A stretch of DNA of 61,155 nt, counting the filler, from Fonticula-like sp. SCN 57-25 (lineage: Eukaryota), in the NCBI GenBank assembly GCA_001724245.1. It is 4 parts of 4 records of this genome, joined end to end, with 100 filler letters (N's around TTAATTAATTAA, not from the genome) between each part and the next. Parts side by side here need not be neighbours in the genome. Positions count along the whole stretch, not along the records: positions 15,889 to 30,745 come from MEDX01000151.1; 3 more parts are not named here. One strand, 5' to 3'. Each line of letters opens with the position of its first letter. The stretch's first letter is position 1. Position numbers and translations under genes: made by a program. Positions 5,264-46,353 of this stretch are shown here, one piece after another. A model generated the notes under the pieces. It saw only the letters and a list, made by a program, of their open reading frames with translations. It made no database searches and was not told the DNA's origin.

Positions 5264-6706
5264 CTAAGCGCCATACTTGATGCAAATGGTCTTTGCCTCG
5301 GTGAAGAACTCTGCAGAGTCGAATCCTCCCTCGCGGCCGACGCCCGACTGCTTCATGCCGCCAAACGGCATGCGGAGGTCGCGCAGCATCCAGCAGTTGC
5401 ACCACACGGTTCCCGCCTGGATCTCGCGCGCGACGCGGTGGAGCCGCCCGGCATTCTCCGACCATACCGACGCCGCCAGGCCGTACGTGACGTCGTTGGC
5501 GAGCGTGATGGCCTCCTCCTCCGTGTCAAACACGACGACGGTGACGACGGGGCCAAAAATCTCCTCCTGGCACACGCTGCTGCTGTGCGGCAGCCCGCTG
5601 ATGACGGTCGGCAGGTAGTAGTAGCCGCCGGCGAGGCGACCCTGGAAGGTCGGGCGCTTGCCGCCGCACTCGATGATGCCGCCCTGCTTGCGAGCGGCGG
5701 CCACGTACCGCTCGATCTTGAGGAGGTGGCCCTCGCAGATGAGCGCCCCGACCTTGGTGTTAGGGTCGCTCGGGTCGCCGACGCGCAGCGCGCGGACGCC
5801 CTCAATGTAGCGCTTCATAAACTCTTCAAAGATGCCGCGCTGGACGAGCAGCCGCGACGTGCACAGGCAGATCTCGCCCTGATTCTGGAACGACGAGCGG
5901 ACAACCGTGGGAACGCACTGCGCGAGGTCGGCGTCGTCAAAGATGATTCCGGCGTTCTTGCCGCCGAGCTCGAGCGAGAGCTTCTTGTAGAAAGGCGCGC
6001 TGGCCTTGATGATGTGCTGCGCAGTCACCGTGCCGCCGGTGAACGAGATGAGCGGCACATCGGGGTGGCTCACGAGAGCATTGCCCGTGCGCGGGCCCGT
6101 GCCAAAGACCATGTTCACAACGCCGGCGGGGAGGCCAGCCGACTGGAAGATGCTGCAAAGGCGGTGGGCGGTCAACGAAGAGAGCTCGCTCGGTTTGCAC
6201 ACGGCGGTGTTGCCAAAGGCAAGGCAGGGGGCGATCTTCCATGTCAAAAGGTAGAGCGGGAGGTTCCACGGAGAAATGAGGCCGGCAACGCCGACGGGCA
6301 TGCGCTGCACGTAGTTCACGGCATTGGCCTGCTCCATGTGCGTCGCATGCTCAACGGGGTTCATGATAACATCGGCAAAGAACCGAAAGTTGGACACACA
6401 GCGGGGGATCTCAATTTCGCGCGCAAGCCACACGGGCTTGCCCTGATCCTGAGACTCGAGCTTGGCAAACTCCTCAAGGTCCTTCTCGAGAAGGTCCGCG
6501 ATGCGGCGAAGCATGCGCGCGCGCTCCTCGCGAGGCGTCCGCGACCACGCAGGGAAGGCGGCGCGGGCGGCCTTCACAGCGGCATCAACCTCGGCGGGGG
6601 TGCTGTCGGGCAGCTGGGCGTTCACCGTTCCATCCGCGGGGCACACGCTATCGATGTGCTCGCTGCTCGGCACAAACTTGTTGTTGATGAAATTTTGCAC
6701 CTTCAT
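5264..6706 (-). CDS. ALDH8A1: Aldehyde dehydrogenase, ALDH8A1 / 2-aminomuconic semialdehyde dehydrogenase type; intronless
   Basis: ISPWNLPLYLLTWKIAP, LELGGKN, NQGEICLC, EEIFGPV and CWMLRDLRMPFGGMKQSG motifs. Confidence 0.92.
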   Translation of the reverse strand: MKVQNFINNKFVPSSEHIDSVCPADGTVNAQLPDSTPAEVDAAVKAARAAFPAWSRTPREERARMLRRIADLLEKDLEEFAKLESQDQGKPVWLAREIEIPRCVSNFRFFADVIMNPVEHATHMEQANAVNYVQRMPVGVAGLISPWNLPLYLLTWKIAPCLAFGNTAVCKPSELSSLTAHRLCSIFQSAGLPAGVVNMVFGTGPRTGNALVSHPDVPLISFTGGTVTAQHIIKASAPFYKKLSLELGGKNAGIIFDDADLAQCVPTVVRSSFQNQGEICLCTSRLLVQRGIFEEFMKRYIEGVRALRVGDPSDPNTKVGALICEGHLLKIERYVAAARKQGGIIECGGKRPTFQGRLAGGYYYLPTVISGLPHSSSVCQEEIFGPVVTVVVFDTEEEAITLANDVTYGLAASVWSENAGRLHRVAREIQAGTVWCNCWMLRDLRMPFGGMKQSGVGREGGFDSAEFFTEAKTICIKYGA

Positions 6707-9481: not shown

Positions 9482-10841
9482 CTACAAAACGACCGTTGAG
9501 CCGGTCGGGCGATCGCTCGCGTCCGTCTGCTCCACCCGCCACGCCACCAGCTTGTGGTCGTACCCGGCCGAGAATAGCGTCGACGAAGCGGCGTCAAAGA
9601 AGAGGTCGCGGAGAACATTCTCGTGGACACGGAGCACCTGCACGATAGAGCGGCTCTTGATGTTCACCACGGCAATGTGACGCTCCTGGATAAACGTCAA
9701 TTAGAAGCAACCTAAAAGTGCATTTGTGCGTACCAGAGTCGAGGCGAAAATGAACTCGCCCGACGAGTGCCAGCAGTGCCGCGCCTGGCTGTACCCCGAC
9801 GTCTCCAGGCCGTAAATGTTTGCGACCTGCTCGTTCGAGCGCGCGCGCGTCACAATAATGCGCCCGCGGTCAGTGTACGCCGACACGTACTTGCTGCTCG
9901 GGTGGCTGGCCACTGCCGACGCCCGTTAGCGACCATTGACATTTGATCATTGTCGTACCGTCGAGAATGGTAAAGCTGACGAAATCGTCGCCGTTGGCGT
10001 TCATGTTGTACTTTGCTACGGTCCTTGACGGAAGCTCGACGTAGTGCAAGAAGCAGTCGTCACGGCTGGCGATGACGACCGCCGACGCGTCCGCCAAAAA
10101 GGCAATCCCCTCGACGGTGCCCTTCATCTGGTACCGCTCGACCAAGTCGTACGGCGCGTCGGGCCCGTAGAGGCAAGCTGTGTGGTCGTACGACGCCGTC
10201 GCAAAGAAGCGGCCGTCGGGGCTCCACTTTGCGCGCACGACAAACTTGCGGTGGTCCTTGTAGACGCGCACCAGCTCCTCGTCGCTGCCGAGGGCGTCGA
10301 CGTTGAGCAGCGCGTGTGAGCCGTCCATCGACGCGCTCAGCACAAGCGAGGGGCGCTGCGGATGAACGCTCACGCTCAGAACGCCCGCCTTGTGATGAAG
10401 AACAGTGCCAACGCGCTCGCCGGTGCGAGCGTCCGTAAAGGCAACGCACTTGTCGGCGCCGCCCGACACGAGGAGAGGGCCGCCAGAGGGCGACCGCGAG
10501 GGGCGATGAGGAGTCAGCGAAATGGACAGCATGTTGCCGGAATGAATGTTTTCGTGAACGCGCTCCACTTGGACATCGAGACGGCTGGGCGCGCCGCTCA
10601 GCATCTGCTCGTCATCGGCGCGGCGGCGGCGCTCATCTTGAAGCGTCGCACGCGCAAGGCGGCTCGAAACATCGTCATCGACGGCCACAAGGCGGGCAAG
10701 CTCGCCCGACGGAAGCTCTCCGGGCTCGTACGACACGTCGGTCTCGCGCTTGAGAGACTCTAGCGTAGCCTCGTAGCCGCACTCGTACAGGTACTGCGCG
10801 ACCAGCTTGAGCGTCCGGCTCTCGGCCTCCATCGCGTCCAT
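9482..10841 (-). CDS. LisH + WD40 repeat protein; 2 introns
   Basis: LVAQYLYECGYEATLESLKRE LisH motif followed by WD repeats (SGGADK, SASMDG, TASYDH, SAGYDH). Confidence 0.85.
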
Positions 10842-10925
10842 GGCGATGTTGACTGACGACAATCGAAATGCGCAGTCACGATTAACAAAACGCGCAGTCA
10901 TCGTTTCGCACGCGTGTCAGCGACG

Positions 10926-12122
10926 ATGGGGAGCAAACAACGCAAGAAGCGCAAGGTCGCCGATGCCGTCTCAATGATGAACAACATCAAGTGCACGAAT
11001 GGAAAGCTTGCGCGGTTGAGCAGGGTTCTCAAGGAGCAGGCGGTTCAGCACTCAAAGGCCGTGGCGGCCAAGAAGCGTCAAAAGGCTATCGAGGACGGGA
11101 CGCACGCTCGCGCCAAGGAGCGCCGCGCTGCCGCCGCCGCCGCCGAGACAATGCCGTACAAGGAAGGTCAGTGGATCCTCACTGTCGGTGACGGAAACTT
11201 TTCTTTTTCTGCGTCTGTCGCTGCGTCAATGGGCGATGGCGAGCGCATCGTTGCGACCGCGTTCGACTCGGCGGACGATGCGCTCACCAAGTACAGCGAC
11301 TTGCCCGCGCACCTCAAGGCGCTCGAGCAGCTCGGGGCCACCGTCATGTTTGACGTGGATGCGACGCGCCTGAATGAGTACTTTGAGTCAGAGTCGAGAT
11401 CGGCGAAGCGCCGCCGCCGCAACAGGGAGAAGGCGGCCGGAATTGGGGGTGAGGAGGAGGACGACGAGGAGGAGGAGGAAGAGGAAGACGACGAGGAGGA
11501 AGAGGAAGACGAGGAAGAGGAGGAGGAGGACGAGGACGAAGAGGAGGAGGAAGAGGAAGAGGAGGAAGAGCCTGTAGATGATGAAGAGCAAGACGACGAA
11601 GAGCAAGAGGACGAAGATGCCGATGACGAAGAACAAGAGGAGGACGACTCTGACATGCAGGAGAACGAGTCTGACGAGAACGAGGAGGACGACGAGGCAG
11701 GAGACGACGCGTTTGGCGATGCCGACCGCGACATTGTCAAGGAGGGCGAAATTCGCTTTGACTATATCGTGTTTAACTTTCCGCACGTCGGTCTGGGAAT
11801 CAAGGACGTTGACCGCAACATTGCGGCCAACCAGGAGATGCTCGTTGGCTTCTTTGACCGCGCTGGCCGCCTTTTGTCGCGCCAGGGCGAAGTCCACGTC
11901 ACTATCAAGACGGGCGACCCCTACGACCGCTGGAAGATTGTCAAGCTCGCGCACAGGAGCGGCAAGCTCCGCTTCAAGACGACGAAGACGTTTGATCCGA
12001 ATGTTTATCCGGGATATTCGCATAGGAGAACTCTCGGTGCGGTCGATGGACTGTCCAAGTTGGGCAACGAGGAGCTCAAGGGGAAGGAGTGCAAGACGTA
12101 TATCTTTGGCCTCGCGCAATAG
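10926..12122 (+). CDS. BMT5: 25S rRNA uridine-N3 methyltransferase BMT5-like (DUF2431) with long acidic insertion
   Basis: ILTVGDGNFSFS, VDAT, FDYIVFNFPHVG, YPGYSHRRT. Confidence 0.88.
   Translation: MGSKQRKKRKVADAVSMMNNIKCTNGKLARLSRVLKEQAVQHSKAVAAKKRQKAIEDGTHARAKERRAAAAAAETMPYKEGQWILTVGDGNFSFSASVAASMGDGERIVATAFDSADDALTKYSDLPAHLKALEQLGATVMFDVDATRLNEYFESESRSAKRRRRNREKAAGIGGEEEDDEEEEEEEDDEEEEEDEEEEEEDEDEEEEEEEEEEEPVDDEEQDDEEQEDEDADDEEQEEDDSDMQENESDENEEDDEAGDDAFGDADRDIVKEGEIRFDYIVFNFPHVGLGIKDVDRNIAANQEMLVGFFDRAGRLLSRQGEVHVTIKTGDPYDRWKIVKLAHRSGKLRFKTTKTFDPNVYPGYSHRRTLGAVDGLSKLGNEELKGKECKTYIFGLAQ
11451..11700 (+). repeat. GAR/GAC low-complexity tract encoding a poly-Glu/Asp insertion
   Basis: Runs of gaggaggaa and gacgag triplets. 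Confidence 0.9.
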
Positions 12123-12232: not shown

Positions 12233-14000
12233 ATGTCGGAGGGCGATGCCGGGCCGCCGGCCAAGACGGTGTCCCTGGAGGACATTCTGGACCCGTCCGA
12301 CCGCCGCATCAAAGAGGACATGCTCCGCATGATTCTCAGTTACCTTAATGAGGAGGGACTCCATACAGCGCGCCTCGCGCTCCAGGATGAGGCCAATGTA
12401 AAGGCCGCCACGGCGCGCGAGCGGCACGGCGACCTGCGCGCCGTCCGAAAGTCAATGAAAGGTGCGTGACGCGGTCATCCTGCATGTTTCTCTAACGCTG
12501 AGCTATTCATTTGTAGACGGTGACTGGCCCGAGGTTGAACGTCTTATTCAAAAGTTGAATATCCGCAACAACAAGGCGTTCCTCTACTCTGTGTACAAGC
12601 AGCAGTTCCTCGAGATGGTGGATGCCGGCGAGCTCCAGAAAGCGTTTGCGTTCCTCACCAAGCGCTTGAAGCCGCTCGAGAACATGCAGAGCTCGCCGGA
12701 CGAGTTCCGTGACCTCTGCTACCTGCTCACCTGCAAGTCGGTCCAGGATGCGCCGTCCTTCCGCAACTGGGAAGGGATAGGGCCATCGCGCGAGAGCCTA
12801 TTGGAGCGCTTTCAGAGCATGCTCGAAATTGAGACGCAGGACACGCAACGTACGCCATGCTGATCCCTCTTTGTGTATTAACACGCCATTCGCAGCCACC
12901 GAGCAGCTACCAACGGGCCGCCTTTTGACACTGATGCGCCAGGCGCTCGCGTACCAGCTCGAATTTTCCGCACACCGCCCGAAAGCGCTCCCAAAGATCA
13001 CCACGTACGCCCCGTATTGCTCTTTCGCCGCCTGTTCTAACAGTCGCCCAGTCTTCTCGAGGATTATGCGACGTACGTCGTACCGAACTCGTGCAAGCGC
13101 GTGCTTGAAGGTCACCTTGGCAACGTCAAGTGCGTCGAATTCATTGGCGAGGAAGGCGCGTACCTTGCGTCCGGCTCGAGCGACAATACGATTCGTATCT
13201 GGAAGACGTCCGACGGGACGTGCGGCGCAGTCCTTCAGGGCCACTCGTCGCGCGTGTGGGACCTGTCCTCGAGCCGCGACGGCGCTCACCTTGCGTCTGC
13301 CTCGGCCGACGGCACTGTGCGGCTATGGGACGTGCGCTCGCACCGGCCGAGCAGCATCGCGACGTACGCGCTCGACCAGTCGGACATTTACACCGTGTCG
13401 CACCACCCGCTGCAGCGGCACCTCGTCACGGGCGGGTACGACAAGCTCGTGCGGCTCGTCGATATCGGCACGGGCGAGGTGCTCAAGGCGCTCGCCGGGC
13501 ACCGCGCGCCCGTGTGCTCCACCATCTTTAACCCGTACGGAAACCTCGTCATCTCGAGCAGCAAGGACCACACGGTCCGCTTCTGGGACATGACGTCGGG
13601 CATCTGCGTCAACTCGATTGGCGCGCACCAGCACCTCGGTGAAATTACATCTATTGCCATCAGCAGCAACGGCCAGCAGCTGCTTACGTGCTGCAAGGAC
13701 AATAGCAATCGGCTGTGGGACCTGCGCATGCTCACGTGCAAAAAGAGGTTCAAGGGTCACCAAAACACATCGAAAAACTTTATTCGCGCCGGGTTTGGCG
13801 CCAAGACGACCGTCGTCGGAGGCTCAGAGGACGGCATTGTCTACATTTGGGACACGGAAAAGGGGCAGGTGCTGCAAAAGCTGAGGGGGCACGACGGGAT
13901 CGTGTACGAGACCGCCTGGAATACCAACCAGGCCGTGCTCGCCAGCTGCAGCGAGGACCGCACCGTCAGGCTATGGTCCTACGACGAGAAGAAGACCTAG
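12233..14000 (+). CDS. LisH-CTLH + WD40 repeat protein; 3 introns
   Basis: MLRMILSYLNEEG LisH, CTLH-like segment (GDWPEVE...YKQQFLE), about 7 GH-WD repeats. Confidence 0.88.
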
Positions 14001-15788: not shown

Positions 15789-15888
15789 NNNNNNNNNNNN
15801 NNNNNNNNNNNNNNNNNNNNNNNNNNNNNNNNTTAATTAATTAANNNNNNNNNNNNNNNNNNNNNNNNNNNNNNNNNNNNNNNNNNNN
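15789..15888. other. Assembly gap with TTAATTAATTAA linker
   Basis: 100-nt N run with a central all-frame-stop spacer. Confidence 0.98.
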
Positions 15889-16711: not shown

Positions 16712-17092
16712 ATGATCCTCGGGATCGGCCAGGATGTTGTGAGCCTGGCGCGCTTTGCGGGCGTCGTGGAGCGCGTTGGTGCGCAGCGGCTTGCCAGGCG
16801 GATACTGGCGACGAGCGAGCAAAAGGAATTGGAAATGATCCACGCGCGGGACCGGCAAGTAAGACTGTTGGCCGCGCGGTTCGCCGTCAAGGAGGCATTC
16901 TTCAAGGCGACGGCGGGCATCGGCGAGGCAACATGGAAAGAGGTTCACGTGGAGAAAAGTGACAGGGGAGCGCCGCTTTTGCGTGTTTCTGAGCGCCTTA
17001 CAACGCAGCTCGGCATCGGTCGGTCACACGCGACGATCGCACATGATGGCGACTACCTCGTCGCTTCGGTGATCCTCGAGAGTAAAGAATGA
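16712..17092 (+). CDS. AcpS-type 4'-phosphopantetheinyl transferase (PPT2-like); intronless
   Basis: MILGIGQDVV, AARFAVKEAFFKA, GAP, TIAHDGDYLVASV. Confidence 0.92.
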   Translation: MILGIGQDVVSLARFAGVVERVGAQRLARRILATSEQKELEMIHARDRQVRLLAARFAVKEAFFKATAGIGEATWKEVHVEKSDRGAPLLRVSERLTTQLGIGRSHATIAHDGDYLVASVILESKE

Positions 17093-17722
17093 GGGGATCA
17101 TGTGCGTGTATGGGAAGCGGACGCGGTTTGCGTGTTGTGTGTATTTTTATGTGTTGGTTGTATAGCCAGATGTCCATGCGCGTTGACTTGCGGTGTGGCC
17201 TTTTGTTTTCGTTGTACATTATGATATGAACTACTTTGAGTAAAATACAACATTGAGTGACCTCTTGACATGCCAATGACCCTAGGCTTTCTACTTCTAA
17301 TACTTGGAATGAGAATTAAAAGACGAGCAAAAAAGAACAATACTGAAATAGTGCGTTTCGTTGTCATAAACTGGACTCGTGTGCGACGAGAGGGATTCTG
17401 GCCGCATGCTCCATAATTGGTACACTACGTACCGGCTTCCTATGCATATACATACAAATATATGGATGCTAGACGTAAATAGTACAAAGAGCACTCGTTT
17501 CTGTCTAGTATGATACCGGTATCATACAGTATGATATGATATGTATGAAAGAAACACATTGACCAATGACACTCCAACATTGTACAGTGGGACCAAATGG
17601 ATTATTGCAAGCTAGCCTTGTCGTGAATGTTGCCTATTTCGTGGCCACAACTCCACCTACGCACATGACACAAAAACACAATGTCGTCAAAAAGAGCGGC
17701 GCGATGTCTTCCTGCCATATGA

Positions 17723-17754
17723 TCACGTGCTTTTGTGATTTTGGGTCACGTGAT
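17723..17754 (+). promoter_or_regulatory. Paired CACGTG E-boxes upstream of WD40-SAM copy 1
   Basis: TCACGTG at 17723 and GTCACGTGAT at 17745; the pair is conserved in all three copies. Confidence 0.7.
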
Positions 17755-17849
17755 CATTGGTTTGCGTTCACGGCGCCGGCGCCGCGCATCTGCGGTAGCA
17801 TCTGTCGTTTGACTTGTTTTGGAGAGAAAGCAGAGGTAGTGACGCTGGT

Positions 17850-19928
17850 ATGGCACAGCAGTTGGCCAAAAAGACGAATATTGAGCTTCACGCCAAGGGG
17901 GTGCGTCGACGTTTTGGTGAGCTGCTGGTCTGTTGCTGATTGCGTTCGCAGGTTTTTGGTTGTGCGATTTCCCCCAATGGCACTTTGTTGGCAACTGGGA
18001 GTATTGACAAGTCACTCTGCATCACCAACATCGTCACGCAGGAAAAGGTGTACAAAGTGGAGTGTGATGATGAAGTACGTTCTTGTCTGTCCTTTTTCAT
18101 TCTAACACCATCAAGGTGCGGTTGGTCGCTTGGTCGCCCGACGGGACCCGTCTTGTCGCCGTGACACTTGGTGGCAGCGTCATCCAAGTAACAAAGAACA
18201 ATGCGCACTCGACCGTGTACAAGATCAACGCGGCTGTATGCATCATGCTTGCCGTTCATTCTTTGCTTATATTATGCTCTAGTTATGGGGATGCGCGTTC
18301 AGTCCCAGTGGGATCGTTGCCGTCGGTGGGAATGATCAAGCAGTTACACTCTTGGATCCATCCAACAACTATTCGGTTGTCGAGACATTATCTGGATTGG
18401 CTGAAAAAGTACGCTATTGTATGTTTACTTGCTGATGTTTACCGTGGCATGTGCAGGTGAGGTGTTTTGCCTTTTCACCCGACGGGAATCTTCTTGCCGT
18501 GGGATGTTTTCATGGCCACATGTATATTTATGGACTGACCAATGGCAAGTGGGCGCGAGTGGCTTATAACAAGTATCACTCTAAATGGGTACGGTGTTGC
18601 CTTTTATATTCTCATTATTAATTGTTACAAGGTCATGTCACTCTCCTTTAGTCCCTCTGGCCGCATGCTGTTGGCCACAAGTGATGACATCACTGCCTCC
18701 ATCTGGAATGTTCCATCTGGAACCACATGGCCATCAACTCCTCACGTGACACTTATAGAACACTCGCATCAAGTCAATGGCGGCGCTTTTCTTGGTGATG
18801 AGTCGCATGCCATCACTGGGTCGGCAGATGAATCCCTTAACATTTGGCGCACCTCTGATGGAGAGCAAACTGTAAACTACGAATGTGATAAATCGGTGCG
18901 TCACTTGTGCATCTCTATTTTGCTCACTATTTTCTTTCTCTTCAGGCATGGTCACTATCATATCATGCTGCATCTGGAGTCATTGCCGTTGGTACTAGTA
19001 AGGGTCATGTTGAAATATGGCAAACAGCGGCATGTGATCCGCGTAGTATTTCTGCCGCTCTTAAATCGCATGCTTGCATCCGTACTAGATTGAGCGTTGC
19101 GCAGGCACAAGCCAATGATATCCAAGCATCATTAAAGAAAGCAGATGATAAATTACGTCAGAAGATGTCACGTGAACAAGAACTGAAGCGCTCAATTGCC
19201 GACCTAGAGGAAAAACGTGCGCACTTTCTCCTTTATAAGCAGCATACTGATTGTGTCTAGTGGCGAGTGAGAAAGAGGCATTAAAGAAATTGCAAACCGG
19301 TGACTATATTGCACAGTCACGTGTGTATAGTGAGCTGAATGAGCGCCACAGTGAACTACTTGGCATCATCAATGTTTGCACGCAGACACTTGACAGCTTG
19401 ACAGACTGTCTGTCTGTTTCCGGATTGGAGGATCTCCGCGGCGACACCTTCAAGGAGTGGTTGTGCGACATTGGCATGAGCAAACTGCAAACTTCATTAA
19501 AAGATATTGACGGTGTTTCCCTGACGATGCTAAATGTGGGTGACGTCACGGAGTATGACGTCACCTTCAATGATGCCGCTACCCTTCACTTGCGCGGCTA
19601 TATTGCGCAATACAAGCTGAGTGATGACAGCGCATTTGCGCCGCCCAATGAGACTGTCCTGTCATGGGACGAAGTGCAAACTGCAAACTGGATCAAGACA
19701 CTTGGTGCCCCATATGAGTCTCTTTCCTCTGCTGGCTGGCATGGTGCTGCACTGTGTTCTCTTTCGCCGCCACGTGTCATTGAAGCCGGCAAGGGATCGC
19801 TCAAGGCACCAGACGCAGTAAGGTTCATTGGACTTGTGCGTGCAAAGCGGAGAGAACTTGACGGCGAAAAGGACGATTGGGTGTCAAAGTGGACCGGCAC
19901 GGCAACAATTGAATTACAGGCTGTATAG
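17850..19928 (+). CDS. WD40(x7)-coiled coil-tandem SAM-like protein, copy 1 (exons 17850-17900, 17952-18074, 18116-18235, 18283-18408, 18457-18588, 18632-18895, 18946-19216, 19261-19928)
   Basis: GT-AG splicing gives an open frame; WD repeats (CAISPNG, AWSPDG, AFSPSG, TGSAD); heptad region; SAM-like FKEWLCDIGM..IDGVSLTML and VLSWDEVQTANWI..WHGAALCSL. Confidence 0.85.
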
Positions 19929-20634
19929 TTTTCCTGTCTCTTTCAGTTCAGCCAAGCCTCTTTTCCCTCCATTATTTTCTTTTTCCACCATTTCTCTTGT
20001 TTTATTTACTTACAATTTTCTGATTGGACTGTGAGACAATTTTTCCCTTTTCGCCCACATTCCCTCTCTATTTATCCATCTTCTTCCACCCTCGTGAATC
20101 AACCATAATCACAAACAGAAGAGATCCGATGCTGAACTGCGCTGTGAGGGATGCCCGGCCACCCGCAAAACTGAATCACATGTTCAATTATGTCGTCCAA
20201 TCCTATTGAGCGTGTGGGCTGCGACGCGCGACAGGCATGCCTCTAGGGTAACATGTGGGCTATCAAGGTGGGTCGCTCCGCACGCGGACGGCGGCCAGCT
20301 GGCAGGCACAATAAGCGGACGGCATCAGATAAAGACATGTATACACTCGCGGGCATTGGCTGGAATTCTCTGCAGGCAGGGTGGTAGGGCGATGGACGAT
20401 GCGTGGTTGATCTTGCTTGATCACACAGTACTCGTTAGAGCCAACTTAGGAGGGCGATGAGGGAGGATGGATGGCGATGAGGAAGAGTAAACGGACTAAG
20501 GGGATGCAATTGCGTGACAGGCACATTATTGTTGAATATTGTTTATCTTTTGCACGGCACTGAAAAGATACCGCAAAGAGAGGCACGAAAACGTGCACTT
20601 GCATTTTTGCAACCTGTCCTGTGTGAGCAGTGAG

Positions 20635-20664
20635 CACGTGATGATGAAAGTTTAGTCACGTGAT
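20635..20664 (+). promoter_or_regulatory. Paired CACGTG E-boxes upstream of copy 2
   Basis: CACGTG at 20635 and GTCACGTGAT at 20655. Confidence 0.7.
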
Positions 20665-20741
20665 TTTTGCTTTGCGCGCCAACGACCACCACGGCGGCCA
20701 GCCGCGGCCTCAAGGAACCGTAGAGCGAGTGACGCTTAGCA

Positions 20742-22837
20742 ATGTCGCATCCGTTGGCCACAAGGGCGAATATTGAGCTGCACACGGATGGGGTGCGTTT
20801 ATTTTGTGTGATAAGCTGCTGATCTGATGGTGATCGTGTTTTCAGATTCAAGGGTGCGCGATTTCCCCCGACGGCACGTGGGTGGCATCTGGTAGTGACG
20901 ACAAGTCGCTCTGCATCACCAATATTACCACGCAGGAAAAGGTGTACACTGCAGAGTGTGATAGTCAAGTGCGTGCTTTTTTGCCCTGTCTTGTTTTGAC
21001 ACTTCATCAAGGTGTGGGGCGTCGCTTGGTCATCCGACAGAAAGACTCTGATCGCTGTGACAACCGGTGGCAGTGTCTTCCAAGTCACGAACAACAATGC
21101 GCACTCGTCCGTGTACAAAATCGACAAGGCTGTATGTATCATGTTCGCCGCTCGTTCTTTGCTCATCCCTTGTTTAGTTGGGTGGATGCGCGTTCAGTCC
21201 CAGTGGGATCGTTGCAGTCGGTGGAGTTGATAGAGCAGTCACGCTCTTGGACCCAACCAACAACTATTCGGTTATTGAAACATTATCTGGATTGGCTGAT
21301 GAAGTATGATATTGGATGTTTGTTGCTGATGTTTACCGTGGCCTGTGCAGGTGAGATGTCTCGCGTTTTCTCCTGATGGGAATCTGCTTGCCGCGGGATG
21401 TGATGGTGGTCACATGTATATTTATGGACTTTCCGATGACAAGTGGGCACAAGTATTTTACAAAAATAATCATTCTAAATGGGTACGATATTGGCTTTTA
21501 TATTCTCTCCATGGCAAATTAACTATTACTAGATATGGTCACTTTGCTTCAGCCCCTCTGGGCGCATGCTATTGGCCTTGAGTGATGACTACACAGCTTC
21601 CATCTGGAATGTTCCATCTGAAACCACGTGGCCAGAGGATCCTCACGTGATACTCGAGGGACACACGCGTCAAGTTAATGGCGGCGCTTTTCTCGGTGAT
21701 GAGTCACATGTCATTACTGGGTCTGCCGATCGATCCCTTCGCATTTGGCGCACTTCTGATGGAGTGCAAACTGCAAAATACGAATGTGATAAATCGGTGC
21801 GCCACGTGTGCGCCTTTTATTTGCTCATTCTTTAATGCTATTTAGGTGTGGTCGCTGTCATATCATGCTGCATCTGGCGTCATTGCAGTTGGCCTTGCCG
21901 ATGGTCACATTGATTTATGGCAAACAGCCGAATATGATTCGTTTGATATTTCTGCAGCACTTCAATCGCATGCTTGCTTTCGTACTCGATTGAGTGTTGC
22001 GCAGTCACGAGCCAATGATATCCAATCATTAATTGAAAAGGCGGATAGTGAATTACGTCAGCAGATGTCACGTGAGCAAGAACTGATACGTTCGATCGCC
22101 GACCTCGAGGAAAAATGTGCGCACTTTCTATTTTATAAGCATCCTACTGATTGTATCTAGTGGCGATCGAGAAAAAGGCCCTAAACGAACTGCAAACTGC
22201 CGACTATATTGCACAGTCAAGTGCTTTAAAAAACCTAACGGAGCGCCACAATGCTCTTCTGGGTGTTATTCATGGCTGCACACAGATACTAGACAGCTTG
22301 ACAGATTGCCTATCTGTTTCCGGATTGGAAGATGTTCGCGGCGACGCCTTTAACGAATGGCTCTGTGACATTGGCATGAGCAAACTGCAAACTTCTTTAA
22401 AAGATATTGACGGTGTTTCCCTGACGATGCTTAATGTGGGCGACGTCATGGAGTATGACGTCACCTTCAACGATGCCACTGCCCTTCAACTGCGCGGCTA
22501 CATGGCGCACTACAAGCTGAGTGATGACAGCGCATTTGCCCCGCCAATTGGGAGTGTATTGTCATGGGACGAAGCGCAAACTGCAAACTGGATTGCTTCA
22601 CTTGGTGACTCTTATGCTTGTTTGTCTGATGCTGGCTGGCATGGTGCTGCACTTTGCTCTCTTTCACCGCCACGTGTTGTTGAAGCCGGCAAAGGAGCAC
22701 TCAAGGTACCAGATGCTGTAAAGTTTATAGGACTGTTACGCGCAAAGCGATCCGAAACAGACGGCGATAAGGCCACGTGGGTGTCAAAGTGGACCGGCAC
22801 AAGCGCCATTGACAATCAAGCTGTACTTTTTTTATAG
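20742..22837 (+). CDS. WD40-coiled coil-tandem SAM-like protein, copy 2
   Basis: Same 8-exon structure as copy 1, starting MSHPLATRANIELHTDG|IQGCAISPDG; frame appears intact. Confidence 0.85.
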
Positions 22838-23240
22838 TGTTTCTTACCATTCTCATTAATCGTCTTTGTTGATACCGGATATCATGCTCTTGTGGTTACA
22901 CTTTTCAACAAGCTATGATTATTAATTTATAATTTTGATATGTTACCGGTATTGTATGTATCATATTCAAACGGCAAAACAACAAGAATTAGATGTGAAT
23001 TTGAGTTTGAATTTTAGTTGAACCACCAGTACCGGGTACGGCATCTGACCGGACAGACGAGACGTTCAGATGATGCTTGCGCAATGCTGCCGACGCTAAG
23101 AAAGAGATGCAGCTTGGCCACAGCCGTACCGCCCGCGTTATGCGCAGAATGATCGAGGTAGTGCAACCCGCCGGCTTACTTTCAGCTGGGCAGCACACGC
23201 CATCCTTAGAAGATCATTATTGTGCTGATCGCCATATGAT

Positions 23241-23270
23241 CACGTGATGAAATAAATTTAGTCACGTGAT
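23241..23270 (+). promoter_or_regulatory. Paired CACGTG E-boxes upstream of copy 3
   Basis: CACGTG at 23241 and GTCACGTGAT at 23261. Confidence 0.7.
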
Positions 23271-23349
23271 CTTTGCTTTGCGCCAACGACTGGCGACCGC
23301 CCACATCCACGGCGGCCTCGAGCAAAAGTATAGGAAGTGGCGCTTAGCA

Positions 23350-25410
23350 ATGGCGCATCCATTGGCCAAAAAGGCTACTATTGAGTTGCACACGAAGGGG
23401 GTGCGTGAAGGTTTTGGTGAGCTGCTGATCTGACGCTGCTTGTGTTCGCAGGCGGACGGGTGTGCGATTTCCCCCAATGGCACTTGGGTCGCAACTGGCA
23501 GTCAAGACAAATCGATCTGCATCACCGACATTGCCACGCAGGAAAAGGTGTACACTGTAGAGTGTGATAATCAAGTGCGTGCTTGTGTGTCCTTCTTTGT
23601 TCTGACGCCTTTTCAAGGTGCGTGGTATCGCTTGGTCGCCCGACGGAACCCATCTGATCGCCGTGACGACTAGTGGCAGTGCCATCCAAGTCACAAACAA
23701 CGACGCGCACTCGACCGTGTACAAGATTGATAAGCCTGTATGAATTATGTTTGCCGCTCGTTCGTTGCTCACCCCTTGTCTAGTTGTGGGGGTGCGCGTT
23801 CAGCCCCAGTGGGATCCTTGCCGTCGGTGGAAATGATCAAGAAGTTACACTATTGGACCCATCCAACAACTATTCAGTTATTGAGATACTATCTGGATTT
23901 GCTGATAAAGTATGCTATTGTATGTTTACTTGTTGATGTTTACCGTGTATGTGCAGGTCAGGTGTCTCGCGTTTTCTCCTGATGGGAATCTTCTTGCCGC
24001 GGGATGTTATGATGGCCACATGTACATCTATGGACTGACCAATGGCAAGTGGGCACGAGTATTAACTAACATGTATCATTCTAAATGGGTACGATATCCA
24101 TATTGCTTTTTATATTCTCATTGCTAATTATTACTAGGTCATGTCACTTTGCTTCAGTCCCTCTGGTCGCATGCTACTGGTCACAAGTGAAGACATGACT
24201 GCATCCATCTGGAATGTTCCAAATGGAACCACGTGGCCATCCACTCCTCACGTGACTCTTAAGGGGCACACGAATCAAGTCAATCGCGGCGCCTTTCTCG
24301 GCGACGAATCGCATGTCATCACTGGGTCGGCTGATAAATCACTACGCATTTGGAGCACTTCTGATGGAGTGCAAACTGTAAACCACGAATGCAAACCGGT
24401 GCGTCACTTGTGGTCTTTTTTTTTTGCTTATTTCTTTGATGCTATTTAGGCATGGTCACTGTCTTACCATGCTGCATCTGGTATCATTGCCACTGGTACG
24501 AATACGGGTCAAGTTGGAATATGGCAAACAGCCGCATATGATCCATGTGATGTTTCTGCGGAACTTCCGTCACACGCATGCGTCCGTACTAGATTGAGAA
24601 TCGCACAGCTTCAATCAAATGCTGCCGAAACAACGCTCAGCAAGGTAGACAATGGATTACATCTGCGGATGTCACGTGTACAGGAACTGAAGCGATCGAT
24701 TGCCGACCTCGAGGCCAAACGTACGCATTTAAGGATCACGTAGTTATACAACTAACATGTGTACAGTAACGGGCGAGAAGAAGGAGCTAGCGGAACTGCA
24801 AACTGACGAATTGCGTCATTTCAGTAATGTGACGGAGCGCCATAATGCTCTGCTTGGCATCATCAATGTCTGCACGCAGACCCTTGACAGCTTGACAGAT
24901 TGCCTGAAGACTTACGGATTGGAGGATCTTCGAGGAGACGCCTTTAAGGAATGGCTATGTGACATTGGCATGAGCAAACTGCAAACTTCATTGAAAGATT
25001 TTGATGGCAGCACTCTGACAATGCTTAACGTGGGTGACGTCATGGATAATGACGTTACCTTTAACGATGCCGCTGCTCTTCACTTGCACGGCTACATTGC
25101 GCACCACAAGCTAAGTGATGACAGCGCATTTGCCCCGCCCAGTGAGACTGTCCTATCATGGGACGAAGTGCAAACTGCAAACTGGATAGCTTCCCTTGAT
25201 GACCAATATGATTGTCTTGTTGATGCTGGCTGGCATGGCGCTGCTCTATGCTCACTTTCGCCGCCACGTGTGGTCGAGGCGGGCAAGGGCGCACTCAAGG
25301 CAACCGAAGCGGCAAAGTTCATTGGACTTGTGCGTGCAAAGCGGAGAGAAATTGACGGCGAAAAGGACGAATGGGTGTCAAAGTGGAGCGGGGCAAACGT
25401 CATTGCTTGA
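23350..25410 (+). CDS. WD40-coiled coil-tandem SAM-like protein, copy 3
   Basis: Same 8-exon structure, starting MAHPLAKKATIELHTKG|ADGCAISPNG; only small in-frame deletions seen. Confidence 0.85.
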
Positions 25411-25685
25411 CAATTATACCTTTTTTATCTGATATGTATTCTGCTCCCTTGAAATGAACAATACAACAAAGCACTTCTCAAAAATCTACCCTGGAATCTG
25501 CCCCGTATCCGCTGCTCGTCCAATCACGTCGCGTTTCCCCTGTCGACGCGTCGGAGGCGGTGATCGAGTCCAAGTCGCCTTCGTGCTTGCGCCACCTACA
25601 CGAGCGACGACTACGGCGAAGAGCAACGTGGTGTCACAAGCACACAACACTTTTAAAAACTTTTATTATTTGTTTCTTTTTCGCG

Positions 25686-26745
25686 ATGCCAATGGACGAT
25701 CTGAGCGATGCCGAATCGGTGTCGGCCTTTTTTGATGCCGAGCCTCGCCCCGACTCACTCACGGCATCGCTCGCCTCTGTGCAGCACTTTATCGATGTCC
25801 ACTCTGTAAGCGACCGTCGTTTTGTCCTTGTGACCGTGCGCCTTTCCCGATCCCCTTTTCATCATGCTCATGTTCACCTTTGCGTATCATTGGCAGTCTG
25901 GCGGCACGACTGTGGCCATGGAGCGCAACACGGTGCGCTTCATCGACAATTTCAGCGCCGGCACGCGCGGCTCCGCCTCTGTCGAGTACTTTCTTCAGGC
26001 CGGCTACGTCGTGATCTTTCTTCACCGCCGCGGCAGCCTTCTCCCCTACCTGCGCAACATCAATCCCCACGAGCTGCTGAATCAGCTTTCCGTCGCGCCC
26101 GATGACTCTGTTTCGCGTACGCCGCATCTCTATTTCAATATGAATATTATTAACAAATTTCATTCTAAACGTACAGTAAAGGGCGATGCGCGCCGCACGA
26201 TGGCGCATGCACTTCGCGATTACGAAATGTACCGCTCTCGCCTTTCCTTCATCCCCTTTGGCACTGTCACCGAGTACCTCTACCTCCTCCGCGGCATCTC
26301 CCAGCTCCTCTCCCCCCTCGGCCCCCGCGCCATGCTTTACCTCGCCGCGGCCGTGTCCGACTTTTACATCCCCTTTGCCGACATGAACGAGCACAAGATC
26401 CAGTCGCGCGATGGCGGCCTGCTAATGTCGCTCAAGCAGGTGCCAAAGATGCTGGCGGCGCTCACCGCCGAATGGTCGCCAAGCGCGTTCATAGTCACGT
26501 TCAAGCTCGAGACGGACGAGAATCTTTTATTGGCAAAGTGCCGCGCGGCGCTCGACAGGTACAGGCATCAGGTGACCATTGGCAATATTCTTCATACGAG
26601 AAAGGATTGCGTCATTGTTGTGCATAAGGAGGAGAGCGAGCCGGTCGAGCGCATCGTGAGGGACCCGGCGCTAAGTGATATTGAGGATGCGCTCATTTTG
26701 AGGCTTGAGAGACTTCATACGGCATTCATCGAGCACAACGCCTAA
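25686..26745 (+). CDS. PPCS: Phosphopantothenate--cysteine ligase; 2 introns
   Basis: [58 protein letters not shown]. Confidence 0.95.
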
Positions 26746-27023: not shown

Positions 27024-29258
27024 TTAATGAGGCAGCGACGTCTCAATTGTATGAAGCGTCTTTAATATCCTCTGCATCCTCTTATCATCATCGCTCGGCC
27101 CCGCCGCCGACGCCGCCTCGCCAAACAGCATAATCTTATTGACGTACTTTACGCAGAAAATAAGCCACATGGCCACCTCGTGCGACCCCGACGGGCTCGC
27201 CACGCGCTGCGCCACGTGGGGCGTCGAAATGTACTCGCACAGACGCAGGCACGAATCCACGAGCGCATCAGAAAACGTCTCAAGGCACCGAATAAACCTC
27301 AGAGACGATTCGCTTTCTTGCTCGCCGTCGGCCAGGGGCGACGCAATCCACGCGCCGGCGACGGCCTTTGTGACCTCGAGCAGCTTGATAATCTGCTCAA
27401 AGTGCGCCATGACGCGCGCCTTTGACATGGACTGCGTGCTCGCCTCAAACTCGGCCATCGCGACCGAAATGTACTGCGACGCAAGACGAAGGCCGTGCTC
27501 GGCAAGCTCGCGCGAGGGCAGTCCGCCCCCGACTCCGCCTCCGACAATGCCGACGGCGGCCCGCGCGAGCGCCATGGTCTGCATGGCAAAGGCGAGCGAC
27601 TCTTGCGTGCGCTTGCTCTTGCCCTTGGCGATCACCTGCACCGCCGTGACGCGCTCGAGGGCGTCCATGGCGGACATCGTGCGCGACACGACCGCGCACG
27701 CGCGGCCGCACACCCACGCGCCAGCGGCGGCGAGCAGCGCCTCGTCGACGGGCAGGCCGCGCGCGCGCCAGCGCTTGGCGTCGCTGCTGAGCGTGTCGCC
27801 CCAGATGTGCGCCTTGGACTGCAGCACTTCGCCCTGTTTTTTGAGGTCGGCGGCAAGGTCGTCAAGCGGGACAAAGGTGTCGGCGGGGCCAGAGGCGAGC
27901 GTCGCGCGCATGCTCGCGCTCACCATCACAAAGTGGGAAAGGTCCTCGAGGCGCGACTCGACATTGCGCCAGTTAGGGACGCTCTGCGCCATCTCCTTGC
28001 TGCCGCCGGGGTACCACTGGGGGGCGCTCTGAAGGGCCTCAACAATGCGCGTGATCTCGTCCGGCGTCGTAGGGATGCTCAACAAGAGCGACGCAGCGAC
28101 GACGAGGGTTTCTTCGCGGCCGCGCTCGGCAAGGGCTTCAAACTCATCGGCGGTGATGCGGCGGCCGCGGCTCTGCACCTCGACCCACGTGCGGTTCTTG
28201 CTCGCAGCAGAGGAGGCATTGGCGTCAGTGTCGTTGCCGCGAAGGCGCTTGGCGAGGCGCGTGTTGAGGCGGCGCTGAAGAATCTGCACGGCTTCGGTCG
28301 ACGTCACAGAGTCAATGTCCTCAATAGAGGTCGGCGCGCGCTTCACGCCAAGCATCGGCGGAGGCGGCGGCGGGGGGGGAGGCGGGCCGCCGGCGCTCAT
28401 CATTGGCGGAGGCGGCGGGGGGGCGATCGGCGGGCACGATAGGTCGACGAGCAATGGCTGCTGCTGCTGCCTCAAGGCGGACCGGGTGGGCGTGGCAATT
28501 TTCCTCGCGGGCGACGCGGCAAAGGCGAGCGGCGAGAGGGCGGCGACCGGGAGCGAGCGGTAGAGCGGCGAGTTGGCGGGGCTCGCGCTGCGCAGCGTGC
28601 TGCGGCGGTCAGAGAGCGGCGAGCCGAGGCCGCCGAGCGAGTCGCTCACGGGCACGAGCGGGGCAGGCTCATAGTCGTCCGCCATGGGCCGCGACGGGCT
28701 TAGGCTGTAAAACTCGCGAAGAATGTCGCGGCGGATGCGCGCCTGGCGAGCGCGTGTGTTCTCAGGGGCGTTCTCGTTGGTCTCGCAGGCGCGCTTGGCG
28801 GCGGCGGCATCGAGCGACTCGTCGGCGCTCGAGTTGGTGCGCTTCAGGCCGCGGCGCAGCGTCGACAGCTCGGCAAAGATGCGCTTGGAGATGGGCTTGC
28901 GCGTGGCGACCGACGGCGTCACGAGCGAGTCGCCCTGCGGCATCTCCTTCTCGACAACGCTCTCGAGCGCAGTCATCAGCGTGCCCATGACATTGCGCCA
29001 CATCGCAGACACGGTCGGGTTCTTTCCCTCAGCAGGGGTCGCCTCGGCGCGGCGCTTTGCCGACATCAAAGGCTCATCGGCGGGATCCGCCTGCTTGCTG
29101 CGGCGGAACAGATTGCGAGCGGACGACTGGGGGGTCCGCACGGGCAGTGGGGGAGGAACCGCAAAAGAGATGTCATCCATCGATTCCGAGAAAGAGTGCA
29201 TTCTCCCACTCGTGCTCCTGAGCTGGCGCTGCTGCGGCAGCGGCGTGGCGGTCATCAT
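27024..29258 (-). CDS. 744-aa intronless protein: disordered N-terminus, polyproline tract, helical C-terminus (possibly CHUP1-C-like)
   Basis: Long GC3-rich ORF; PPPPPPMMSAGGPPPPPPPPPP; KRWRARGLPVD and CVKYVNKIMLFG motifs. Confidence 0.8.
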   Translation of the reverse strand: MMTATPLPQQRQLRSTSGRMHSFSESMDDISFAVPPPLPVRTPQSSARNLFRRSKQADPADEPLMSAKRRAEATPAEGKNPTVSAMWRNVMGTLMTALESVVEKEMPQGDSLVTPSVATRKPISKRIFAELSTLRRGLKRTNSSADESLDAAAAKRACETNENAPENTRARQARIRRDILREFYSLSPSRPMADDYEPAPLVPVSDSLGGLGSPLSDRRSTLRSASPANSPLYRSLPVAALSPLAFAASPARKIATPTRSALRQQQQPLLVDLSCPPIAPPPPPPMMSAGGPPPPPPPPPPMLGVKRAPTSIEDIDSVTSTEAVQILQRRLNTRLAKRLRGNDTDANASSAASKNRTWVEVQSRGRRITADEFEALAERGREETLVVAASLLLSIPTTPDEITRIVEALQSAPQWYPGGSKEMAQSVPNWRNVESRLEDLSHFVMVSASMRATLASGPADTFVPLDDLAADLKKQGEVLQSKAHIWGDTLSSDAKRWRARGLPVDEALLAAAGAWVCGRACAVVSRTMSAMDALERVTAVQVIAKGKSKRTQESLAFAMQTMALARAAVGIVGGGVGGGLPSRELAEHGLRLASQYISVAMAEFEASTQSMSKARVMAHFEQIIKLLEVTKAVAGAWIASPLADGEQESESSLRFIRCLETFSDALVDSCLRLCEYISTPHVAQRVASPSGSHEVAMWLIFCVKYVNKIMLFGEAASAAGPSDDDKRMQRILKTLHTIETSLPH

Positions 29259-30745: not shown

Positions 30746-30845
30746 NNNNNNNNNNNNNNNNNNNNNNNNNNNNNNNNNNNNNNNNNNNNTTAATTAATTA
30801 ANNNNNNNNNNNNNNNNNNNNNNNNNNNNNNNNNNNNNNNNNNNN
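30746..30845. other. Assembly gap with TTAATTAATTAA linker
   Basis: 100-nt N run. Confidence 0.98.
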
Positions 30846-46253: not shown

Positions 46254-46353
46254 NNNNNNNNNNNNNNNNNNNNNNNNNNNNNNNNNNNNNNNNNNNNTTA
46301 ATTAATTAANNNNNNNNNNNNNNNNNNNNNNNNNNNNNNNNNNNNNNNNNNNN
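46254..46353. other. Assembly gap with TTAATTAATTAA linker
   Basis: 100-nt N run. Confidence 0.98.

Follow-up and report, generated by a model that had tools for sequence, protein, structure and literature searches.

Exons in register with propeller blades in three tandem WD40 genes of Fonticula-like sp. SCN 57-25

The stretch of DNA described here, called the window below, comprises 61,155 nucleotides (nt) joined from parts of the assembly GCA_001724245.1 of Fonticula-like sp. SCN 57-25, and its sequence is eukaryotic in character. Within the part taken from MEDX01000151.1, three tandem paralogues encoded on the plus strand (the triplet) are predicted to specify proteins in which a WD40 propeller at the N-terminus is followed by a coiled coil and a tandem SAM-like C-terminus. 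In each copy, the introns of the propeller precede six of the seven blade starts and share a single phase, and the same layout recurs in relatives from metagenomes. We infer that this layout is the fossil of an amplification of blade exons with later intron losses, which became fixed and has been inherited since, and we put the probability of this reading at about 0.55. The regular register of exons and blades indicates a process that acts on the repeat unit, for which duplication is the simplest candidate.

The three copies follow each other at a spacing of ∼2.6 to 2.9 kilobases (kb) and show 72 to 91% nucleotide identity over the gene body. The spliced products are predicted to contain 584, 587, and 575 amino acids (aa) for copies 1, 2, and 3, with all frames intact. 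Each copy is composed of eight exons and seven introns, the junctions of which are predicted from the sequence, with comparative evidence for the introns. Exons 1 to 6 of copy 1 measure 51, 123, 120, 126, 132, and 264 nt and align with exons of equal length in copies 2 and 3, save exon 6 of copy 3 with 261 nt. Introns 1 to 6 of each copy start with GT, end with AG, and lie in phase 0, every junction falling between codons. The exons that follow them in copy 1 begin with VFGC, VRLV, LWGC, VRCF, VMSL, and AWSL, respectively. A sequence-only reading of this DNA had given the same exon lengths, phases, and exon starts, with equivalent positions in copies 2 and 3, and its description is borne out apart from the 261-nt exon. 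Intron 7 differs from the others, being in phase 1 and located in the coiled-coil part, outside the propeller. The features of the triplet are as follows.

17850-19928, plus strand: copy 1 gene, 584 aa; WD40 propeller, coiled coil, and tandem SAM-like C-terminus; ratio of nonsynonymous to synonymous substitution rates (dN/dS) of 0.28 to 0.31 versus copies 2 and 3
17850-17900, plus strand: copy 1 exon 1, 51 nt, 17 codons; start codon and short N-terminal segment
17901-17951, plus strand: copy 1 intron 1, 51 nt, phase 0, GTGCGT...GCAG; in-frame stop if retained
17952-18074, plus strand: copy 1 exon 2, 123 nt; blade 1; WD40 match with an expectation value (E) of 5.7e-5, exon residue 1 at profile position 14
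18075-18115, plus strand: copy 1 intron 2, 41 nt, phase 0
18116-18235, plus strand: copy 1 exon 3, 120 nt; blade 2; weak Pfam signal alone
18236-18282, plus strand: copy 1 intron 3, 47 nt, phase 0
18283-18408, plus strand: copy 1 exon 4, 126 nt; blade 3; weak propeller-family Pfam match alone
18409-18456, plus strand: copy 1 intron 4, 48 nt, phase 0; precisely absent in the metagenomic relative L019
18457-18588, plus strand: copy 1 exon 5, 132 nt; blade 4; WD40 match with E = 9.8e-4, exon residue 2 at profile position 15
18589-18631, plus strand: copy 1 intron 5, 43 nt, phase 0
18632-18895, plus strand: copy 1 exon 6, 264 nt; blades 5 and 6; WD40 match of 39 bits, two matched stretches
18896-18945, plus strand: copy 1 intron 6, 50 nt, phase 0
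18946-19216, plus strand: copy 1 exon 7, 271 nt; strands a to c of blade 7, then start of the coiled coil
19217-19260, plus strand: copy 1 intron 7, 44 nt, phase 1
19261-19928, plus strand: copy 1 exon 8; long helix, then two SAM-like domains
20742-22837, plus strand: copy 2 gene, 587 aa; exons 20742-20792, 20846-20968, 21012-21131, 21178-21303, 21351-21482, 21533-21796, 21846-22116, and 22161-22837
23350-25410, plus strand: copy 3 gene, 575 aa; exons 23350-23400, 23452-23574, 23618-23737, 23784-23909, 23957-24088, 24138-24398, 24450-24720, and 24767-25410

The first 13 positions of the WD40 profile correspond to strand d of the previous blade and the GH loop. When the exons are scanned singly against Pfam PF00400, exon 6 exceeds the gathering score of 27 bits with its two matched stretches, the matches of exons 2 and 5 both stay below it, and exons 3, 4, and 7 give weak propeller-family matches only. 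Residue 1 or 2 of exons 2, 5, and 6 aligns to position 14 or 15 of the 39 profile positions, and the propeller introns are found at position 13/14. We take profile position 14/15 to be the first residue of strand a, following the standard repeat description (Smith et al. 1999). An exon that starts with strand a therefore encodes strands a-b-c-d, that is, the structural blade and not the sequence repeat. The proposal that the introns fall just before strand a thus agrees with the starts of these three exons.

Across the three copies, the 21 blade units align in seven classes, each of which begins at an exon start except blade 6. Blades 5 and 6 are contained in one exon, and none of the copies seen is interrupted by an intron between the two. 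The probability that six randomly placed introns coincide with six of seven blade starts is 8.9e-15, or 1.1e-12 if any common repeat offset is allowed, and none of 2,000,000 random placements in a simulation gave equal phase together with offsets within 2 codons. With seven blade units aligning in each copy, every protein is predicted to form a seven-bladed propeller. In most WD40 propellers, the N-terminal segment supplies strand d of the last blade. By its position, the 17-residue segment encoded by exon 1 would supply the outer strand d of blade 7, leading to velcro closure of the ring.

The introns themselves show a consistent set of features. All 21 are of the GT...AG type and 41 to 53 nt long, and 17 of them contain a YTRAY branch-like motif at -35 to -10, compared with 231 of 2,000 exon windows. 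Two introns of an unrelated minus-strand WD40 gene in the window (9482-10916) agree with them in size and donor type. If retained, each of the 18 propeller introns would lead to a frameshift or a stop. The length differences of introns between copies are non-multiples of 3 at all seven positions, and exons are equal in length or differ by multiples of 3, with insertions and deletions (indels) other than multiples of 3 being confined to introns. Copies 1 and 2 differ at 95, 78, and 171 sites in codon positions 1, 2, and 3, an excess in the third position, and dN/dS is 0.28 to 0.31 in the spliced frames and ∼0.3 in the propeller. These comparisons argue for splicing at the predicted junctions. 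An annotation artefact, in which the apparent introns are unspliced and frame breaks happen to fall at matching places in three decaying pseudogenes, is strongly disfavoured and retains very little probability. It could draw on the G+C content at third codon positions (GC3), which at 0.47 to 0.51 in the triplet lies far below the 0.77 to 0.85 of four neighbouring genes. However, GT and AG are kept at the same codons in all three copies and in the relatives, all three open reading frames (ORFs) are intact after splicing, and neither the third-position excess and the dN/dS of ∼0.3 nor the restriction of frame-breaking indels to introns is in line with decay.

Relatives of the triplet are found in metagenomes. 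More distant members of the family show ∼45 to 50% identity in the C-terminus. A search with the C-terminal exon yields 35 proteins among 1.84 billion representatives, and a pattern scan of metagenome contigs reveals 25 related loci with 51 to 78% identity, L003 and L023 among them also containing tandem copies. In tblastn searches with the exon peptides of copy 1, exons 2 to 8 are collinear and separated by intron-sized gaps in every locus with enough sequence. The comparison of layouts covers the 13 metagenomic loci with at least two propeller exons, which offer 40 testable sites for introns 2 to 6. GT and AG are present exactly at the homologous codon in 29 of these and within 3 codons in nine more, the latter having been sought in whole-codon steps only, so that phase 0 is assumed for them. 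The remaining two sites both belong to L019. At positions 387 to 906 of this locus, exons 4 and 5 form one uninterrupted frame, which means that intron 4 is precisely absent, and intron 5 is extended to ∼245 nt and T-rich, compared with the usual ∼45 nt. All six loci with upstream sequence contain an exon-1-like segment with a GT donor behind it, and exon 1 is kept in L003, L004, L014, and L022.

Some relatives show further peculiarities. The propeller of L019 is much more diverged (54 to 66% in exons 2 to 7) than its C-terminal exon (79%). The contig of L013 opens (positions 6 to 390) with a single exon in which a blade-7-like segment is joined in frame, through a short linker, to an exon-1-like segment; intron 1 and exon 2 of a complete copy follow immediately. 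This arrangement suggests that L013 encodes a double propeller or that two adjacent tandem copies have fused. In the exon 7 region of L003, L007, L013, and L024, blade 7 and the coiled coil are separated by in-frame insertions of variable, low-complexity sequence with abundant Pro, Ala, and Gln.

The other two WD40 genes of the window lack an exon-per-blade layout, as stated in the sequence-only reading and confirmed by their ORFs and intron positions. A WDR5-like gene (13041-13997, plus strand) encodes all seven blades in one ORF. The minus-strand gene mentioned above contains several repeats in one ORF of 348 aa and two introns located elsewhere in the repeat: the intron at 9958-9913, in phase 1, falls in the region of strand a and the a-b turn, and the intron at 9733-9686, in phase 0, lies between strands b and c. 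The assembly piece that carries both genes is not that of the triplet. The two introns of the minus-strand gene are 46 to 48 nt long, with GTACG donors and CTAAC or CTAAT branch-like motifs, and provide a reference for intron style within the assembly. The N-terminus of this gene product appears LisH-like by eye; Pfam gave only WD40-type families.

The blade exons had also been proposed to act as symmetric cassettes that could be skipped or swapped between paralogues. This proposal holds insofar as exons 2 to 6 are bounded by phase 0 on both sides, and skipping or exchange would keep the frame. Active swapping is unsupported, as exon order and number are fixed: no skipped, duplicated, or re-ordered blade exon is found among the three window copies and the 13 related loci, and the identical order counts against the proposal. 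Trees of the individual exons are not congruent, in line with the proposal, and the copies are mosaic, but the converted tracts cross exon/intron borders and do not reflect cassette exchange. The 557 informative sites split 166/198/193, with a breakpoint at 19048 whose maximum chi-square of 23.2 is reached by none of 500 permutations. One conversion tract runs from the middle of exon 7 through intron 7, where 17 of the 20 informative sites place copy 1 with copy 2, into exon 8. Another tract at 19468-19587, in which a sliding-window comparison shows copies 1 and 2 to be 94% identical, is located wholly within exon 8. The crossing of exon/intron borders therefore indicates ordinary gene conversion between tandem duplicates. 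Alternating affinities obtained from per-exon nearest neighbours were discarded as partly an artefact of partial alignments, and the sliding-window comparison is preferred.

A system in active use, in which the propeller surface is varied through alternative splicing that omits blade exons or through their transfer between paralogues, is consequently improbable. The symmetric phases, the expansion of the family into 25 related and partly tandem loci, the mosaic copies, and the larger rearrangement in L013 all speak for such a system. Yet that rearrangement, the only one of its size seen, fuses blade 7 and exon 1 inside an exon. Beyond the fixed order and the border-crossing tracts, the exons are unequal in length, and each blade has a one-to-one counterpart in the other copies, with blade-to-blade identity within one protein of only 9 to 34%. 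The dN/dS of the propeller further points to constraint and not to diversifying selection. The phase symmetry has no demonstrated function today.

For the origin of the layout, the following series of events is proposed. A blade-sized exon with phase 0 on both sides would have been tandemly duplicated by recombination in the flanking introns, and the blades would then have diverged over a long time. Occasional precise intron losses would account for the missing intron between blades 5 and 6, lost in the ancestor of the family, and for the missing intron 4 of L019. The diversity among the present copies would stem from point substitution under purifying selection, together with ordinary gene conversion. 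The rule of one blade per exon would have two exceptions, the shared exon of blades 5 and 6 and blade 7, which is probably split between exon 7 (strands a to c) and exon 1 (strand d).

Two recent scenarios were rejected. Recent blade amplification does not agree with the low identity of the blades, which are no closer to each other than to WDR5-like blades. An introner or a recent spread of introns is contradicted by the scores between introns at different positions, with a maximum of 10 compared with a shuffle mean of 10.4.

Parallel intron gain is the more serious alternative. Here, a complete propeller without introns would have gained an intron in each repeat separately, always at the same codon, and reverse splicing, intron transposition into the shared repeat context, or intragenic gene conversion spreading one intron to sister blades are candidate routes. 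Introns are scarce in the genome, and few or none interrupt the propellers of the other WD40 genes, so that the triplet family looks intron-enriched. Most blade exons open with a Val codon (GTN), hence with a common G/GT-like context (the slash marking the junction), and no residual excess similarity is found among the blades. Because no sequence signal of amplification survives, parallel gain has to be reckoned with, but it is unlikely. An exact match at six of seven equivalent codons in the same phase is extremely improbable unless a mechanism targets the introns, and the AG/G proto-splice context occurs at 0 of 18 propeller junctions. Introns at different positions resemble each other only at chance level, their lengths of 41 to 53 nt give no sign of a mobile introner, and the change seen where the family varies, in intron 4 of L019, is a loss and not a gain.

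Several results weigh against the amplification of blade exons or the gene models beneath it. The blades of copy 1 score a mean of 29.8 in local alignments with each other and 28.5 with blades of the unrelated WDR5-like gene (one-sided Mann-Whitney P = 0.19). Exon 1 does not resemble the strand-d tails of the blade exons significantly: shuffled sequences matched the observed score in 211, 712, and 48 of 1,000 cases for copies 1, 2, and 3. A spliced full-length member is absent from both protein libraries searched, with a longest match of 422 aa; the library matches, where inspected, are ORF calls that run through introns 6 and 7 where these are predicted. The phase of the nine shifted sites in the relatives, assumed to be 0, belongs with these points.

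Exons that span whole repeat units are frequent among repeat proteins (Street et al. 2006 and Bjorklund et al. 2010, as cited in PMC3995336), and exon borders in repeat register are regarded there as a trace of exon duplication. The triplet follows this general rule, but its register is that of the structural blade (strands a to d) and not that of the repeat as drawn by Pfam (strand d followed by a to c). In the leucine-rich repeat (LRR) genes of Tetrahymena, arrays of 90-bp exons are reported with >98% of introns in phase 2 (PMC6564038). The triplet shares with these genes one repeat unit per exon, a strong bias for a single phase, and tandem lineage-specific paralogues. It differs in that the Tetrahymena exons are equal, in phase 2, clonally expanded, and variable in number, whereas the triplet contains exons of 120 to 132 nt and one of 264 nt, in phase 0 and fixed in number and order. 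Its units are old and divergent, and they build a closed propeller instead of an open solenoid.

Exon shuffling is reported for the ROCO-LRR genes and the NB-ARC genes with tetratricopeptide repeats (TPR) of Ectocarpus (PMC3341825 and PMC11378527). The successive symmetric one-repeat exons, the expanded family, and the protist-grade eukaryotic host are features in common with the triplet. Gain, loss, and reshuffling of exons among paralogues, as described there, are in contrast not found in the three copies or the 13 loci. The precedents in Tetrahymena and Ectocarpus named in the sequence-only reading therefore exist (PMC6564038 and PMC3341825). Compared with this class of dynamically shuffled genes, the triplet shares one repeat per exon and a uniform phase but not equal exon length, variable number and order, or high similarity of repeats.

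For propellers, a limited literature search found no published exon-per-blade WD40 propeller. A gene of the DPPIV family in Bombyx is described with a propeller blade duplicated as a single exon (PMC9218822), and single-blade amplification is the assumed origin of propellers in general (PMC9218822, PMC6805158, and PMC3797127). In these studies, the evidence consists of high blade identity and thus of recent events. The blades of the triplet are at background identity, and only the intron pattern would keep the record.

An extended version of the amplification model can be offered tentatively, with more doubt than trust. In this version, the propeller was built by intron-mediated amplification of a complete a-d blade exon, and not of the d-plus-abc profile unit, with the velcro closure formed from partial terminal exons. 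The record would have outlived the similarity of the blades, and the symmetry would perhaps still be used on occasion, giving rise to rare blade-skipped isoforms or to fused double propellers like that of L013.

The C-terminal part of the proteins weakly resembles tandem SAM domains. With a profile built from 18 members of the family, the tandem SAM of liprin-beta (3tad_C) is hit at E = 2.4e-4, and Pfam SAM_1 is detected in four of the 18 members with a best E of 9.2e-4, copy 1 itself being without a Pfam SAM match. The AlphaFold model of exon 8 (mean predicted local distance difference test score, pLDDT, 92.7) shows a long helix followed by two helical bundles, the C-terminal 170 residues being modelled confidently (pLDDT 92.7). 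The top Foldseek rows for this model are all tandem SAM structures (SARM1, liprins, and caskins), weak matches with E of at least 0.016 and identities of 14 to 20%. A Protein Atlas search with the C-terminus gave scores of at most 0.76, a lead only. SARM1, liprins, and caskins are not characterised by an N-terminal WD40 propeller, whereas the proteins of the triplet would combine one with a SAM-like C-terminus. The combination of WD40 and SAM exists in the animal protein WDSUB1. The product may act as an oligomerising scaffold presenting a propeller.

The triplet is a marked outlier in codon usage. The genes with the higher GC3 values given above are located at 5267-6706, 9873-10901, 13101-13997, and 27027-29258, and the local G+C content of the triplet is ∼0.48, compared with 0.57 to 0.66 in its surroundings. 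Low expression, a young or fast-evolving family, and foreign origin are possible causes.

A short palindrome recurs in the triplet region.

17746-17753, no strand assigned: TCACGTGA palindrome, 104 nt upstream of the copy 1 ATG; equivalents at 20656 (copy 2) and at 23240 and 23262 (copy 3)

Of the ten TCACGTGA sites in the window, nine are located in the triplet region, with one or two sites placed 86 to 110 nt upstream of the ATG of each copy and others within exons at 18742/21643/24248 and 19168/22068. Intergenic DNA that follows the exon-8 match of L018 and of L023 also contains the sequence TCACGTGATC, and the stretch in L023 precedes the next tandem copy. From these positions, TCACGTGA is a candidate for a shared promoter element.

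Five minus-strand ORFs and one plus-strand intergenic ORF between 17891 and 25424 match no Pfam family, and a scan of 17000-26000 against Rfam gave no match. Elsewhere in the window, a BMT5-like methyltransferase ORF (10857-12119) contains a long acidic low-complexity tract rich in Glu and Asp, encoded by GAG/GAC repeats, at 11406-11720. The window as a whole consists of four assembly pieces, with identical N44-TTAATTAATTAA-N44 linkers at 15789-15888, 30746-30845, and 46254-46353, ∼15 kb apart. The identity of the linkers indicates that the pieces were joined artificially, and adjacency across them is not biological.

As it stands, the layout of the triplet is a tidy, static example of the known exon-per-repeat phenomenon. 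For annotators, the prokaryote-style ORF calls of the public libraries for this WD40/coiled-coil/SAM-like family are fragments that read through introns, and this rare, lineage-restricted family of WD40, coiled-coil, and tandem-SAM-like proteins needs eight-exon models. Models of blade amplification rest on near-identical blades, and the gene structure of a fully diverged propeller in which introns still mark every blade boundary would indicate independently how large the amplified unit was and in which register it lay. Such a propeller would also be a natural system for asking if single blades can be removed or added.

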